64,000 nucleotides of DNA. It comes from a virus. Below, piece after piece: positions 1 to 5,793 of this stretch. Numbering within the stretch: position 1 is the stretch's first letter; the number at the start of each line of letters is the position of its first letter. Location of the stretch: IMG/VR virus record IMGVR_UViG_3300043172_000501, positions 32,657-96,656 of that record. One strand, given 5' to 3'. Both the position numbers and the translations under genes were made by a program. Below the pieces are notes generated by a model. That model searched no databases and was not told where the DNA came from. It saw nothing but the letters and a program-made list of their open reading frames with translations.

Positions 1-2
1 AA

Positions 3-821
3 GACAATGATACAGTTTTAATGTTAGATGGCTGGAATCCATCAGTCACAGCACTTGCCTACGCTAGGGCTGTAAGTGGAATAAACTTTAAAATAGTTTT
101 AGCTCTACATGCAGGAACATGGGACATTCACGATCATCTATCAAGATGTGGAATGAGAAACTGGGCACAATATAATGAACTAGGTTGGCTACTCGCTTGT
201 GACTCAGTAATAGTTGCCACAGAATTTCATCGTGATTTAATAATGGATACAGTTGAACTCGTAGCAAGAACCTGGAGCCAGCAAAAAACAGTAAGAAATA
301 AGATCCATGTGACAGGATTCCCATTAGAATTGGGAGAATTAAACGGCTATCAAGTCCCATGGGATAAAAAAAAGAATCAGGTTGTTTTTCCGCATAGAAT
401 AGCACCAGAAAAAGCACCAGAAATATTTGAAGAAGTAAAAGCAATATATGAAAAGATGTATCCAGAGGACAAACTTAAATGGGTAAGAACTCAAGATGTA
501 TTAAAATCACTGACAGGACCAGTTAAACCACAGTTCTATAAAACATTAGCCGAGAGCAAAGTTGCGTTCTCTTCTGCTTTACAAGAAACATGGGGGATTG
601 CCCAACTAGAAGCATGGTATCTCACGGCATCTCCAGTGGTACCTGATAGACTATCCTATAGAGAACTGTACCCAGCTGATACTAAATATGATGACTTAGA
701 AACAGCAGCTAATATGATACATGAAATAACATACGGAAAAAGTCCTATCCCATTTGAACCAACCACAGACCCACGAAACGTATGGCCTGATATAATTAAA
801 ATATTAAAAGGTGATGCATGA
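3..821 (+). CDS. GT-B (GT4-like) glycosyltransferase, 5' truncated by window edge
   Basis: Frame open back to base 3 (DNDTVLMLDGWNP); motifs HAGTWD, VFPHRIAPEK, SSALQETWGIAQLEA, PVVPDRLSYRELY typical of GT-B retaining glycosyltransferases. Confidence 0.85.
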   Translation, partial: DNDTVLMLDGWNPSVTALAYARAVSGINFKIVLALHAGTWDIHDHLSRCGMRNWAQYNELGWLLACDSVIVATEFHRDLIMDTVELVARTWSQQKTVRNKIHVTGFPLELGELNGYQVPWDKKKNQVVFPHRIAPEKAPEIFEEVKAIYEKMYPEDKLKWVRTQDVLKSLTGPVKPQFYKTLAESKVAFSSALQETWGIAQLEAWYLTASPVVPDRLSYRELYPADTKYDDLETAANMIHEITYGKSPIPFEPTTDPRNVWPDIIKILKGDA

Positions 822-1831
822 AAATTTATTTTGCTGGAGTAGAAGACCTTGACGACAAGACGAGAGCAGTCAACGATGCTAAAGCAAAAAATGTTTTCGT
901 ATCGTATTACAACTTGACAGAATCATCAAACGCTGCTGCGCAAAAACAACTTTTATATGTCCATAAAAAATTAGGCATCAGGTCAATCATTGATTGTGGA
1001 GCGTTTACGTTTATGCACCTACATAAGAAAGTACAATCAGGCTCCGCCATCGCTGGAGATTCTTCTGAGGCTAAAAAGATTGCTGGGCAAGGAAGTAAAG
1101 TACTACAACTAGAAGCATATCTAAGAAACTACATTTCATGGCTTGAAAAAAACTGGTCACTGATTACATATTTTATTGAGTTAGATATGCAAAGAATGAT
1201 CGGGATAGAGCAAGTAAGAGAATGGCGAAAAATATTCCAGAAACGTGGATTAGGAAGAAAAATGTGGTTAGTGCACCACAGTGGAGACTCCTGGGAAGAT
1301 TTCGTTCGTATAATTGATGAAAGCAAAGTTGAAAATGGCGGGTCAGGCATGTGCGCGATTGAAGGAAAGAATATGAGCAAACCAGAAGGTTTCGATTATT
1401 ATCGATTTGCCAAATACGCTTATGACAACAGAGTAGCAATTCACGCCTTCGCATCGACTAGAGCAGACTTCCTTTCGCAAATACCTGTTACGTCGTCAGA
1501 CTCCACATCTTGGTTACAAGGAACACAATATGGAACAACGGTTGTGTTCGACCCTATACGTGGCGGAGTTATCAGCGGTTCGTATAATACAGCTAAGTCA
1601 GTTAGAGGGAAAAATAAGATTTCTATAATTTCAAACGCCTGGACAAAGTTGATGGCACTTGATGTAACAAATGATGAGAGACTGACCGCAGTTGAAGGCA
1701 ATTTAGTTGAAGCAATAAAAGCGTTCGTCAAGATGGAAGATCATCTAACACAAATGTGGGAAGAAAAAGGTTTTTTCTGGCATGAAGTAGAACGTCAGAA
1801 CGCAGAAAAGATAAGGAAGCTGTATGGCTAA
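818..1831 (+). CDS. DpdA/queuine-tRNA-ribosyltransferase-like TIM-barrel base-exchange enzyme
   Basis: MKIYFAG start, IIDCGAFTF (DSG-like catalytic Asp motif), FIELD, IHAFA, SSDSTSW motifs; ATGA overlap with the glycosyltransferase. Confidence 0.7.
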   Translation: MKIYFAGVEDLDDKTRAVNDAKAKNVFVSYYNLTESSNAAAQKQLLYVHKKLGIRSIIDCGAFTFMHLHKKVQSGSAIAGDSSEAKKIAGQGSKVLQLEAYLRNYISWLEKNWSLITYFIELDMQRMIGIEQVREWRKIFQKRGLGRKMWLVHHSGDSWEDFVRIIDESKVENGGSGMCAIEGKNMSKPEGFDYYRFAKYAYDNRVAIHAFASTRADFLSQIPVTSSDSTSWLQGTQYGTTVVFDPIRGGVISGSYNTAKSVRGKNKISIISNAWTKLMALDVTNDERLTAVEGNLVEAIKAFVKMEDHLTQMWEEKGFFWHEVERQNAEKIRKLYG

Positions 1832-2645
1832 AACACAAAAAAGAAAACAAGTTAGAAAGACGAAAAAAGTCGGTACTAAAGCTAAAAGAACTAAAGGCTT
1901 CGGCATGAAGCACAGAGGCGACCGCATCACTATTAAAACAGATGAACTTTCTGAAAATCCTTGGAACCCTAATGAACAAGATGATGATATGAAAAAGAGA
2001 ACTGGAGCATCACTTCATAAGTTCGGCATCGTATCTGAAGTTCTAGTGCGAGAGATAGGCCCCGACAATAAAGAGAAAGAAGGACTAGCCGAAGAAAAAG
2101 GCTACCAAGTTATTGATGGTGAACACAGATGGAGAGAATGTGTAAAGTCTAAGATCCCCAGGATAGAAGTTAGAAACTTAGGAGTTATTTCTGACTACGA
2201 AGCCATGAAGATGACACCAACAATGAATGACTTAAGTGGAGATCCAGAGCCGATAGCTTTAGCCGAGTTGATGGCTGAACTAGATAAAGATGGCAAACGA
2301 GAAGACATGGAAGATGTTTTCCCTTACTCCGCAAAAGAAATCGACGGAATGATCAAGTTGACTGACATCGACAAGTACTTCTTGAGCCCTTCCAGTAAAC
2401 GTCTAAATGAAAAGACCAGATCACAAGACGGCGTCCCATTCAAAGCAGGAAACAGAAAAGCCAAATTACCAATTCCATTAGGCAGTCAATTTATTAAATT
2501 GTATGAAAACATTGCCGGTGAAGTTATGACCATGGACCCCGTGGCAGTAATAGATAGAATGGCACAACTATTATTAGGCGCCATGAAACAGGCGACAGCT
2601 GATGAAGCCCTTGAGTTGATTGAGGAGAATGAAGATGGCAACTAA
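1824..2645 (+). CDS. ParB/Sulfiredoxin-like N-terminal domain protein (copy 1)
   Basis: NPWNPN, KFGIVSEVLVR, YQVIDGEHRW motifs. Confidence 0.85.
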   Translation: MAKTQKRKQVRKTKKVGTKAKRTKGFGMKHRGDRITIKTDELSENPWNPNEQDDDMKKRTGASLHKFGIVSEVLVREIGPDNKEKEGLAEEKGYQVIDGEHRWRECVKSKIPRIEVRNLGVISDYEAMKMTPTMNDLSGDPEPIALAELMAELDKDGKREDMEDVFPYSAKEIDGMIKLTDIDKYFLSPSSKRLNEKTRSQDGVPFKAGNRKAKLPIPLGSQFIKLYENIAGEVMTMDPVAVIDRMAQLLLGAMKQATADEALELIEENEDGN

Positions 2646-3366
2646 ATTAAAAGAAGGATGGTTCGGAGCTAAATCGAGAGGCAAAAGAACATCCGCACCA
2701 ATTCATGAGCTGAAGCCAAATCCTTGGAACCCTAATAAACAATCAGCTATGGTGGCATCACGTATGGGCGTGTCCATGAGTAAATTCGGAATAATCAAAG
2801 AACTTTTAGTACGACAGATCGGACCCAATAATAAAGAAGGTTTCGGGAAAGCAAAGATAGCTGCTTACCAAATTGTTGACGGTGAACATAGATGGAAAGA
2901 AATCCAGAGCGCAGGACTATCAACAGTCGAAATAAGGGATTTAGGCATTATGGCAGATTACGAAGCTAAAGAATTAACAGTAGTAATGAATGAGCTTAGT
3001 GGAGATCCTAATCCGATAAAACTGTCCTCGCTAATATCTGAACTAGAAAAAGCAGGACTACGTGAAGACTTTGAAGAGATTGCCCCTTATACCACTGAAG
3101 AAGTCGACACCTTACTAAAAATTCAAGATATAGAAGATTCTGAACTTTTCGGAGGAGAAGATAAAAAATCAAAAAAAGATAATAAAAAAGATGAAGCTTA
3201 TACTTTTCAAATCGGACCACACAGGGGAATACTTCCACAAGATGTTGCCGAGAAATTTGAAACAGTAATGACAAAAGTTGCTGAAAAGCTTGCCACTACT
3301 GACACTGTGGTGATTGTATCAGCAATTAGTAAGATACTTGAGACTATGCAATCCGTTAAAAGATAA
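2635..3366 (+). CDS. ParB/Sulfiredoxin-like N-terminal domain protein (copy 2)
   Basis: NPWNPN, YQIVDGEHRW; paralogous to upstream gene; start chosen 7 nt after GAGGAG. Confidence 0.85.
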   Translation: MATKLKEGWFGAKSRGKRTSAPIHELKPNPWNPNKQSAMVASRMGVSMSKFGIIKELLVRQIGPNNKEGFGKAKIAAYQIVDGEHRWKEIQSAGLSTVEIRDLGIMADYEAKELTVVMNELSGDPNPIKLSSLISELEKAGLREDFEEIAPYTTEEVDTLLKIQDIEDSELFGGEDKKSKKDNKKDEAYTFQIGPHRGILPQDVAEKFETVMTKVAEKLATTDTVVIVSAISKILETMQSVKR

Positions 3367-3390: not shown

Positions 3391-3444
3391 CCTGTCCAGC
3401 ATCTTATTTCTTGAAATGAACCATATATACCTTTATAATAAAGG
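3391..3444 (+). promoter_or_regulatory. Sigma70-like promoter with palindromic operator over the -10 box (copy 1)
   Basis: CCTGTCCAG (3391), TTGAAA 3411-3416, 17-nt spacer, TATAAT 3434-3439 inside palindrome CCTTTAT-A-ATAAAGG 3430-3444. Confidence 0.8.
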
Positions 3445-3488: not shown

Positions 3489-4220
3489 ATGACAAAGAAA
3501 CAGTATTTAATAAATGAAGAAACTTTCCAAGAGTGGGAAATAAACACAAGAAAACTCCGCACACTAATTAGTTGCATGTTAGTTGCAATTCCACAATTAA
3601 GAATAAAATTCAAAGATGAAGTTAAAATCTGGAAGATAACGCCTAGAATAAACAGGAAATCACACACCACGTTTCGCAATACAATTTATTATTCTAGTAG
3701 ACAACGTGCCATAGAAAATCAAGATTTATTCTTTAAGGTTTTATGTCATGAGTTCATACATCTACTGCAAAGAAAAGCGTTTGGGGGTTTCTTCCATTTC
3801 ATTCGCTACACAGATCCTCAAGTAACATCAATGATAGTACCAGCTATATTTGGAACAGCGATGATAGTAGGAGGAGACACAGTAACTGGGTTACTATTTT
3901 ACGGCTTAACATTATTTCTTATAGCGCCATGGCAATCCCAGTCAAGAGCAGAGATGGAGTGCGAAGCTTATACTATGAATCTAGCTATTGAACAGTGGAA
4001 GTATGGAGAAATAAGACAAAAGAAGAAAGACGAAGTAATTAAGAGTCTAACGAGCCCACTGTATTACTTTATGATATGGAATAAATCCACTGCAGAAAAA
4101 TTAGTAGATAAAATGGTAGAATCAGTTCAAGACTGTCAAAAAAATAAACCTGATTGTTTTAAAATATCAAAAGCTTTTAATATCGTATTCAATATTATAG
4201 AAGAAGAAAAAAATAAGTGA
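3489..4220 (+). CDS. Putative membrane-associated zincin metallopeptidase
   Basis: HEFIH (HExxH), hydrophobic hairpin, downstream EMECEAY glutamate motif. Confidence 0.6.
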   Translation: MTKKQYLINEETFQEWEINTRKLRTLISCMLVAIPQLRIKFKDEVKIWKITPRINRKSHTTFRNTIYYSSRQRAIENQDLFFKVLCHEFIHLLQRKAFGGFFHFIRYTDPQVTSMIVPAIFGTAMIVGGDTVTGLLFYGLTLFLIAPWQSQSRAEMECEAYTMNLAIEQWKYGEIRQKKKDEVIKSLTSPLYYFMIWNKSTAEKLVDKMVESVQDCQKNKPDCFKISKAFNIVFNIIEEEKNK

Positions 4221-4271: not shown

Positions 4272-4796
4272 ATGCTAATGTCATCTGAAGCGAAAGTAAT
4301 CTTAATAGGAAACTTAGGAAAAGATCCTGAAATGAAAACAACACAAAATGGAACTGCAAAATGCAATTTCAGTGTGGCAACAAGTCGCAAATGGAAATCT
4401 AAAGACGGAACACCACAAGAAAAAACCCTATGGCACAGAGTTATCGTCTGGGGAAAACAGGCAGAAAATTGTGCGAAATATTTATCCAAAGGTAGCAAGG
4501 TCTATATTGATGGTGAGATGGACCAACTGAACTGGGAAGACAAGAAAACAGGCGAACAAAAGTCGATGCAAGAAATAATCGGACATCGTGTCGTTTTTCT
4601 CTCAACAAAAAGAGAGAGCCAAGGGCAAAACCAGAACAACAACCAGCAGAATAACCAACAGAATAACCAACAGAACAACCAGAAGCATAGCAAGAATCTC
4701 CCGCAAAATAATTCTGGCAACCAAGGCACCTACCAAGGAAACGACGACCGAGGAGGCGGACAAGACTTTGGTAACGATGATGATATTCCGTTTTAA
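4272..4796 (+). CDS. ssb: Single-stranded DNA-binding protein
   Basis: KVILIGNLGKDPE, WHRVIVWGKQAE, KGSKVYIDG, acidic C-terminal tip DDDIPF. Confidence 0.97.
   Translation: MLMSSEAKVILIGNLGKDPEMKTTQNGTAKCNFSVATSRKWKSKDGTPQEKTLWHRVIVWGKQAENCAKYLSKGSKVYIDGEMDQLNWEDKKTGEQKSMQEIIGHRVVFLSTKRESQGQNQNNNQQNNQQNNQQNNQKHSKNLPQNNSGNQGTYQGNDDRGGGQDFGNDDDIPF
4629..4683 (+). repeat. 12-nt coding tandem repeat (NNQQ) in SSB linker
   Basis: CAGAATAACCAA-type units repeated about four times. Confidence 0.8.
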
Positions 4797-5127: not shown

Positions 5128-5793
5128 ATGGACAAAACGTTCAAGTTAACAAACCCACTGCCAGAAGCTCAAGGCAAAGCTGAAAATGATCACTGGCCCA
5201 CGCCACCACTTCTTGCAAAACAAGCATTATCTTTTGCAATAAATCTTTTACCAAATCCCAGTGTGCCTATTTCCATATTAGAACCAGGTGCTGGCGACCG
5301 GGCTCCATTTCTAACTGCCGCAACTGATAGTTCAAGTTTACTATTCACAGCGAGAGGAATAGAATATCGAGACGTTGAAGTTCCTGAACATTTAAACGGT
5401 AAAACTATTTGGCATAAGAACTGTGATTATTTAAAGTGGAGTATTGATAATCAAAAACGCCCAGATCTAATAATCACAAATCCGCCGTTTAGCCTGGCAC
5501 AAGAGTTCATTGAGCATTCTATTGATATGGTTAAGCCAGATGGAATAGTCGTAATGTTATTACAAACAGGATTCGAAGGCTCAGTTAAGAGGCGAGAGTT
5601 TTGGGGACAGAACAAACCCTTTAAAAGATTACTAGTAAGACCTCGCCCTTCATTTGGTGGCGGTTCTGATAGTAGAGAATACGGAATATATTTCTGGGCA
5701 GGAAGAACGCTTGACACTTTCCTACATCAAACTGGTAGAAACCATTGTGATATGGATTTCATTGATAACGATGGACCATGGAGTAAATTATGA
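5128..5793 (+). CDS. Orphan amino (N6-adenine/N4-cytosine) DNA methyltransferase
   Basis: DHWPTP, motif I ILEPGAGD, motif IV IITNPPF. Confidence 0.85.
   Translation: MDKTFKLTNPLPEAQGKAENDHWPTPPLLAKQALSFAINLLPNPSVPISILEPGAGDRAPFLTAATDSSSLLFTARGIEYRDVEVPEHLNGKTIWHKNCDYLKWSIDNQKRPDLIITNPPFSLAQEFIEHSIDMVKPDGIVVMLLQTGFEGSVKRREFWGQNKPFKRLLVRPRPSFGGGSDSREYGIYFWAGRTLDTFLHQTGRNHCDMDFIDNDGPWSKL

Follow-up and report, generated by a model that had tools for sequence, protein, structure and literature searches.

The window, a stretch of 64,000 nucleotides, covers positions 32657-96656 of IMG/VR record IMGVR_UViG_3300043172_000501, a complete virus record of 96,656 bp with direct terminal repeats. It opens with the 3′ half of a ten-gene phage operon in which a GT-B glycosyltransferase (GT) is joined to a DpdA-type transglycosylase (hereafter DpdA) and, upstream of the window, to genes for 7-deazaguanine synthesis. 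The operon may replace guanine in the phage's own DNA with a 7-deazaguanine derivative, the GT adding a host-derived sugar to give a sugar-bearing 7-deazaguanine, an interpretation that we consider plausible yet slightly short of probable. More tentative is the broader proposition that a virus-specific GT4-like family turns DpdL-derived 7-deazaguanine into a glycosylated form residing in phage DNA, with radical SAM enzymes (SPASM or B12 type) diversifying the sugar. We infer every chemical step, above all the sugar transfer and its acceptor, from observed gene identities, folds, conserved residues, and co-occurrence. What is new is the association of a dedicated GT with a DpdL-type, QueC-less pathway; deazaguanine modification of DNA by DpdL and DpdA was already known as such.

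The glycosyltransferase and the transglycosylase

The GT gene is cut by the window edge, with its 3′ 272 codons at window positions 1..821 on the + strand; the full gene of 354 amino acids (aa) begins 243 nt further upstream (genome 32413-33477, L002:18413-19477). Its AlphaFold2 (AF2) model (pLDDT 94.1) has the two-Rossmann-domain GT-B fold, and Foldseek and VIA agree with this assignment, which the original prediction had made from the sequence. The top Foldseek matches are MshA, GlgM, TarM, and BshA (E ~5e-9). VIA gives Z scores of 26.1 for sucrose-phosphate synthase 6kih, 25.6 for BshA, 23.3 for PglA, 21.7 for tetrahydrobiopterin (BH4) glucosyltransferase, and 18.9 for the T4 α-glucosyltransferase. 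Across 40 sequences of the GT family, the EX7E glutamates E277 and E285 (QETWGIAQLE) and the HR..EK donor-site residues H213, R214, E218, and K219 are invariant, and the LHAGTWD motif, which spans H118, G120, and D123, falls on family-invariant columns.

PF00534 is matched by 36 of these 40 family members and PF13439 by 13 (best E 4e-7). The GT of this phage falls below the cut-off for Pfam Glycos_transf_1/Glyco_transf_4 (E 0.04-0.09), and a sequence-only search of it against PDB chains returned nothing significant. DUF3524, the N-terminal domain of QTMAN/GTDC1, is matched by none of the 40 at E ≤ 0.1. The family comprises >416 protein clusters, is 91-100% viral where taxa are known, and is encoded by at least 594 viral contigs in a profile-guided scan; no fused GT of >620 aa was found, a negative that is weak evidence. 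The GT is best described as a GT4-like retaining GT-B enzyme, virus-specific and widespread. Genes for the synthesis of nucleoside diphosphate (NDP) sugars (PF01370, PF00483) are absent from the genome; the sugar donor is therefore presumably made by the host.

The gene immediately downstream (818..1831, + strand) encodes DpdA, a 337-aa TIM barrel of the TGT fold that matches phrog_887 'queuine tRNA-ribosyltransferase' (E 1.9e-22). With its AF2 model (pLDDT 87.3), 50 of the 50 Foldseek matches listed are TGTs, the best being the covalent-intermediate structure 1q2r (E 1.2e-6, probability 1.00). VIA gives Z scores of 16.6 for ArcTGT (271 aligned residues, root-mean-square deviation 4.2), 15.8 for TGT, and 14.9 for both Cap10 and DpdA 7ui4; generic TIM barrels reach up to 14.5, which leaves a small margin for the TGT assignment by Z alone. 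An exhaustive HMMER search yields 680 relatives. In an alignment of 60 of them, D59, G61, D123, H154, H209, and S226 are invariant, and S60, A62, E121, D228, and S229 are near-invariant, D228 being conserved in 59. The candidate catalytic residues are D59 (DCGA), D123 (ELD, i.e., E121-L122-D123), and D228 (SSDSTSW), which are equated with D102, D156, and D280 of TGT by motif analogy (DSGG, xxD, xFDC) and not by residue superposition. The TGT fold and the conserved aspartates recovered by profile and structure searches uphold the earlier assignment of this gene to the TGT/DpdA type.

No Pfam, NCBIfam, or PADLOC model is matched by DpdA here, the PADLOC result covering Dpd models only if PADLOC has them, and PF01702 is matched by none of the 60 family members. 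The family profile has no match among PDB sequences, and a sequence-only search of DpdA against PDB chains gives nothing significant. Relatives of 470-690 aa carry C-terminal extensions with no Pfam domain and no likeness to anything in this cluster. Of annotated proteins, the closest relative is BCD7 gp021, in its N-terminal part (26% identity); the BCD7 cluster has QueC. The DpdA family is basic, with a median isoelectric point (pI) of 9.3. Fold, conserved aspartates, and basic pI are consistent with an enzyme that would exchange guanine in double-stranded DNA.

Association with the DpdL pathway

The genes from QueD through a P-loop protein abut or overlap one another on the GT strand, directly upstream of the GT and of the window. 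QueD (genome 28822-29310; PF01242, E 1.6e-27), QueE (genome 29255-29986; phrog_2076, E 2.4e-26; TIGR04508, E 4.5e-21), and FolE (genome 29959-30561; PF01227, E 7.8e-71), all on the + strand, are homology-level assignments and would convert GTP to 7-carboxy-7-deazaguanine (CDG). The original prediction expected folE, queD, queE, and queC upstream of the window or in the host; queD, queE, and folE lie just upstream, but queC was not found in the complete genome, with search controls positive in all 14 reference genomes. QueC was likewise not found in five large related genomes, of which four are ≥98% complete.

FolE is followed by a 130-aa protein (genome 30561-30953, + strand) that reads LSYPHRHEF, the LxxxHRHxF signature of DpdL in place of the CxxxHGH of QueD. 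This signature was set as the mark that separates DpdL, a proposed CDG decarboxylase, from QueD (Cui et al. 2023, PMC10516641). The protein is 31% identical to phiST DpdL (tblastn E 6e-6) and 30% identical to ACP17 gp125 (E 6e-13), and phrog_17812 is common to all three and to the PAC2 homologue. DpdL, a QueD-like T-fold protein, would take CDG to 7-deazaguanine if the proposal of Cui et al. (2023, PMC10516641) holds, and here it is accompanied by FolE, QueD, QueE, and DpdA without QueC. Because QueC is absent and DpdL is present, the inserted base is expected to come from CDG or 7-deazaguanine and not from preQ0 or preQ1, the precursors on which the original prediction had relied. As encoded, the pathway ends at CDG and very probably continues to 7-deazaguanine.

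The GT recurs with this pathway. From the viral contigs that encode it, 80 GT loci were fetched with their flanks (81 with the locus of this phage added). By tblastn, DpdL lies near the GT in 74 of the 80 loci, FolE in 67, and QueE in 56. Unsupervised clustering of the flanking open reading frames (ORFs) places DpdL (75/81), FolE (72/81), and QueE (58/81) as the top families after the GT itself. Two transglycosylase families that never occur together jointly account for 72 of the 81 loci: the DpdA type of this phage is found in 30 (this phage included), its gene standing just downstream of the GT in nearly all of them, and a type of ~520 aa, termed c4, is found in 42. The GT clade, whose co-occurrence with DpdA the original prediction had proposed to test, co-occurs strongly with deazaguanine genes. 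Thirty related loci also pair this DpdA type with 7-deazaguanine precursor genes. The remaining nine GT loci have neither transglycosylase family, and most of those end at a contig edge. One 310-kb jumbo contig (L077) carries FolE, DpdL, and the GT with no recognizable transglycosylase of either family within 7 kb; its transglycosylase may lie elsewhere in the genome or be of a third type.

At the loci that hold relatives of this DpdA, the GT and DpdL are found together or not at all: both occur in L009 and L010, and neither in L008, L011, L012, BCD7, and BS162P1. The GT is also absent from QueC-type clusters with FolE and QueD. Of 28 DpdL records in a phage database, 11 are without the GT. 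Since DpdL phages without the GT exist, phiST among them, the GT is a dedicated add-on to the DpdL pathway. Of cultured phages, ACP17 and the PA5oct group have it within their deazaguanine clusters; Xanthomonas phages X1 and BUDD and Synechococcus phage BUCT-ZZ01 also carry it, and Vibrio phage VP1, like phiST, has DpdL without it. The tracking of the DpdL pathway by the GT in hundreds of phages points to, without proving, a modified guanine that bears a sugar.

In the c4 consensus, the classical TGT catalytic motifs appear as GDSGGFQ, M.LD.P, and sFDcASP, and hhalign relates the family to ACP17 gp123 at 88% probability. The c4 proteins (e.g., L069:7336-8895 and those of 41 other loci; PAC2, L005:6367-7989) are unannotated and match no Pfam or PHROG model. 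The TGT motifs and the relation to gp123 mark c4 as a second, DpdA3-like transglycosylase family; judged from sequence, its members are probably DNA transglycosylases missed by current profiles that replace DpdA in PA5oct-type clusters with the GT and DpdL. No relation of the DpdA family of this phage to the c4 or phiST DpdA3 families is found by hhalign, and the shared TGT ancestry of the three is visible only in motifs and fold. Two unnamed families (175 aa, ACP17 gp122-like, and 245 aa) occur only with c4-type clusters (L057, L056, and ~30 other PA5oct-lineage loci), as does a phosphoribosyltransferase-like (PRTase-like) gene in 13-24 loci.

Between DpdL and the GT, the operon encodes a 291-aa radical SAM enzyme with a SPASM domain (genome 30950-31825, + strand) and a 196-aa P-loop kinase-like protein (genome 31826-32416, + strand) that matches AAA_28 and phrog_2107 'thymidylate kinase' and resembles the NadR kinase domain. 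Within this phage's lineage, most loci have a radical SAM gene beside the GT. The SPASM type occurs in eight loci, as in this phage, whereas 19 loci have a 454-aa B12-type protein (PF04055; PhpK family, E 1.5e-11) that resembles B12-dependent radical SAM methyltransferases (e.g., L023:6779-8143, between DpdL and the GT). The two types never occur together, and four loci have neither. Two mutually exclusive radical SAM classes beside the GT fit variable tailoring of what the GT attaches; the SPASM enzyme and the NadR-like P-loop kinase would then be lineage-specific tailoring enzymes, with the B12-type enzyme acting instead in sister phages. Viperin was considered as an identity for the SPASM protein and rejected, as matches to viperin, MoaA, and BlsE run through the generic radical SAM core only and lie far below cut-offs.

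Known systems and the nature of the modified base

phiST DNA was measured to contain plain 2′-deoxy-7-deazaguanosine (dDG) (Cui et al. 2023, PMC10516641). The phiST cluster, QueD-QueE-FolE-(MazG)-DpdL-ATPase-DpdA3, resembles that of this phage in its QueD-QueE-FolE-DpdL order, its lack of QueC, a P-loop protein inside, and a transglycosylase at the cluster end. It differs in having no GT and no second radical SAM enzyme, the MazG-like gene is absent here, and the 259-aa DpdA3 has no detectable similarity to DpdA. Since phiST makes plain dDG and has no GT, the GT would mark something beyond dDG. In both phiST (L006) and Chryseobacterium phage MA9V-3 (L007), which have no GT, a small P-loop ATPase lies between DpdL and DpdA3. 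These ATPases are 32% identical to each other, and the P-loop protein of this phage, in the same cluster position, has no significant pairwise similarity to either.

PA5oct and ACP17 share with this phage the GT family (31-35% identity), the DpdL family phrog_17812, FolE, QueD, and QueE, and have no annotated QueC. They differ in their transglycosylase, which is the 520-aa c4 or gp123 with GDSGGFQ, and in their partner genes, which are PRTase-like and epimerase-like instead of radical SAM, kinase, and ParB. PA5oct DNA resists restriction enzymes in a pattern that implicates guanine, and the modified guanine is uncharacterized in the literature; a deazaguanine system has been noted in PA5oct with the GT unmentioned (Iyer et al. 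2021). In E. coli, dpdL and dpdA expressed alone, whether from phiST or from ACP17 (the GT not included), yielded no dDG (Cui et al. 2023, PMC10516641). The GT, in tracking DpdL, is a candidate for the missing enzyme behind the modified guanine of PA5oct-type jumbo phages, which are of therapeutic interest, and likewise behind the failure of ACP17 DpdL and DpdA to make dDG in E. coli.

The canonical preQ0 systems of Bacillus phage BCD7 and E. coli phage 9g, together with the bacterial DpdA 7ui4, share the TGT fold, the DSG/ELD aspartates, and the FolE/QueD/QueE cluster. Unlike the operon described here, the canonical clusters have QueC, make preQ0 or its derivatives, and are without DpdL or GT. 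Among glycosyltransferases, the GT4 GT-B enzymes QTMAN/GTDC1 reportedly (work of Zhao et al. from 2023) glycosylate queuosine, a 7-deazaguanine derivative, in eukaryotic tRNA. They resemble the GT in their GT4-type GT-B fold and, if the GT acts after insertion, would resemble it in an acceptor that is a 7-deazaguanine derivative already in nucleic acid. However, that acceptor is the cyclopentenediol hydroxyl of queuosine in tRNA, and no hydroxyl-bearing side chain is encoded here. The T4 α- and β-glucosyltransferases are, like the GT, phage GT-B enzymes, and they use host UDP-glucose on a modified base after replication. Their acceptor is 5-hydroxymethylcytosine, for which no hydroxymethylase is encoded here, and GT4 small-molecule enzymes are structurally closer to the GT (Z 23-26). 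Eight deazaguanine derivatives are listed for phage DNA, none of them glycosylated (Cui et al. 2023, PMC10516641), and no paper that connects a glycosyltransferase with deazaguanine in DNA emerged from a literature search that covered few subscription journals.

In the proposed pathway, DpdA would swap guanine in double-stranded DNA for 7-deazaguanine, and the GT, translationally coupled to dpdA, would transfer to the deazaguanine a sugar taken from a host NDP-sugar, acting either on the free base before insertion or on DNA after it. The two ParB paralogues encoded downstream may act as optional DNA-engaging helpers of DpdA. The expected purpose would be protection from restriction and other DNA-targeting defenses.

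Several points weigh against this pathway. No chemical evidence places a sugar on any DNA deazaguanine, and the decarboxylase activity of DpdL is itself a proposal. 7-Deazaguanine has no hydroxyl, whereas hydroxyls are typical GT4 acceptors; the enzyme would therefore have to form an N-, C-, or O6-glycoside or, with CDG, an acyl glycoside, and such a linkage is unusual for a retaining GT4 enzyme. The GT family is acidic (median pI 5.86), in contrast to the basic DpdA family, and its nearest structural relatives act on small molecules, with the DNA-acting T4 α-glucosyltransferase more distant. Together with the missing hydroxyl, these two properties suggest that the GT may act on the free base, and glycosylation before exchange is therefore possible. 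The original prediction placed a sugar on the DNA base and had exchange precede glycosylation; both would be conjectural, and the acidic GT family leaves the opposite order open. The P-loop ATPase of phiST-type clusters sits in the slot that the GT holds in GT-type clusters, so the GT could serve base production or insertion rather than decoration. Finally, DpdA here has a cysteine beside the catalytic aspartate (DCGA), whereas 59 of the 60 relatives, including homologues of 36-49% identity, have serine (DSGA). This cysteine, residue 60, may be genuine or may stem from an error of assembly; of the motifs quoted in the original prediction, those of the GT and DpdA fall on family-invariant columns, and D-C-G-A alone is peculiar to this protein.

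Many of these points are shared by an explanation in which the DNA ends up with plain 7-deazaguanine (or CDG), as phiST does, and no sugar stays in it. The GT would then aid in making, handling, or inserting the base, for instance through a glycosylated intermediate that does not persist, or by assisting DpdA as an auxiliary or non-catalytic partner, and would be a functional analogue of the phiST-type P-loop ATPase. The exact coincidence of the ATPase with the GT position, the failure of DpdL and DpdA alone in E. coli for both phiST and ACP17, the acidity of the GT and its resemblance to small-molecule GT4 enzymes, and the lack of an obvious acceptor hydroxyl on 7-deazaguanine all favor it. 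However, the invariant EX7E and HR..EK residues fit a working sugar transferase, the two radical SAM classes beside the GT fit the tailoring of a retained substituent, and a P-loop protein and the GT coexist in this phage, so that the two are not simple alternatives. On balance, a plain final base is unlikely, though it merits serious attention.

The acidic GT, the presence of FolE and a PTPS-family enzyme, and the BH4 glucosyltransferases among its structural matches (5zes, 5zer, 9v0l; Z 21.7) could also indicate that the acceptor of the GT is a soluble by-product, a pterin or a deazapurine, which is glycosylated for sequestration, detoxification, or signaling, in the manner of the cyanobacterial BH4 glucosyltransferases and with no direct role in DNA modification. 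Yet these enzymes match no better than dozens of other GT4 structures, and the GT tracks DpdL and a DNA transglycosylase and not FolE and QueD alone, as its absence from QueC-type clusters holding both attests. The translational coupling of the GT to dpdA likewise speaks against a soluble acceptor, which we regard as improbable. The GT-B fold common to the GT and the T4 α-glucosyltransferase would allow an acceptor such as a hydroxymethyl-pyrimidine in DNA, modified T4- or TET-style by an enzyme that merely lies beside deazaguanine genes. The original prediction had named this acceptor as one that would count against it. The complete genome has no ThyA-type hydroxymethylase (PF00303) and no TET/JBP (PF12851), in searches whose controls worked, so that no hydroxymethyl-pyrimidine acceptor would be made. 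The sole DNA methyltransferase seen is of the NPPF amino-methyltransferase type, and no pyrimidine hydroxymethylase was identified among the families recurring near the GT in the 81 loci, several of which are unannotated. A hydroxymethyl-pyrimidine acceptor is accordingly very improbable.

If a sugar-bearing 7-deazaguanine is indeed formed, it would, to our knowledge, be the first sugar-bearing purine in any natural DNA. Such a glycosylated purine would extend the known chemistry of natural DNA and change expectations as to which restriction, CRISPR, glycosylase, and END-type defenses are escaped or triggered. Base exchange and glycosylation would also provide a new enzyme pair for site-directed DNA labeling.

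Operon layout and neighboring genes

Among public runs, only a marine sediment metagenome, deposited in contig form, contains the virus. In the window, the operon occupies + strand ORFs at 3-821, 818-1831, 1824-2645, and 2620-3366. An ATGA at 818-821 is common to the GT stop and the dpdA start, and dpdA overlaps parB1 by 8 nt at 1824-1831, both junctions being read directly. The start of the second ParB protein is more likely the ATG at 2635, with a GAGGAG ribosome-binding site 6 nt ahead, than the TTG at 2620 of the mechanical ORF; with this start, the two ParB genes overlap by 11 nt. The four + strand genes with overlapping junctions were thus read correctly at the outset.

Both downstream proteins are ParB/Srx N-domain proteins, as had been supposed. 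ParB1 (1824..2645, + strand; 273 aa) matches PF02195 with E 4.1e-5 and 24 bits, slightly short of the 26.3 cut-off, and phrog_723 with E 4.3e-16. ParB2 (2635..3366, + strand; 243 aa from the ATG) matches PF02195 with E 4.8e-7 at 30.2 bits, above the cut-off, and phrog_723 with E 8.9e-21. The two are 40% identical and have DGEHRW, an arginine motif of the GxxR type, in common. PADLOC matches them only to the ParB-N regions of type II methyltransferase models (E ~1e-5) and to no Dpd/DpdB model; a DpdB-like role may be proposed only by functional analogy.

A promoter-like site, TTGAAA-17-TATAAT, falls just past the ParB2 stop codon (3411..3439, + strand). It is the best of the region, matches the consensus at 11 of 12 positions, and is a consensus match only; the number of promoter-like sites in the region is not above shuffle expectation. 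The overlapping junctions and the position of this site after the last stop indicate that the four genes form the tail of a transcription unit, and the site is probably the boundary between the operon and the unit that follows. The first gene after it (3489-4220) encodes a 243-aa protein with a zincin-like HEFIH motif, a weak SprT-like match (E 0.06), and a hydrophobic stretch in its middle.

An amino-methyltransferase-like protein (phrog_799, E 5e-29; NPPF motif) is encoded at 5128-5793 and, on its sequence, would give this phage another DNA modification that is independent of the first. Between these genes, at 4272-4796, lies a single-stranded DNA-binding protein (PF00436, E 1.7e-34) with a long Gln/Asn-rich repeat (NNQQNNQQ...) ahead of its acidic tail.

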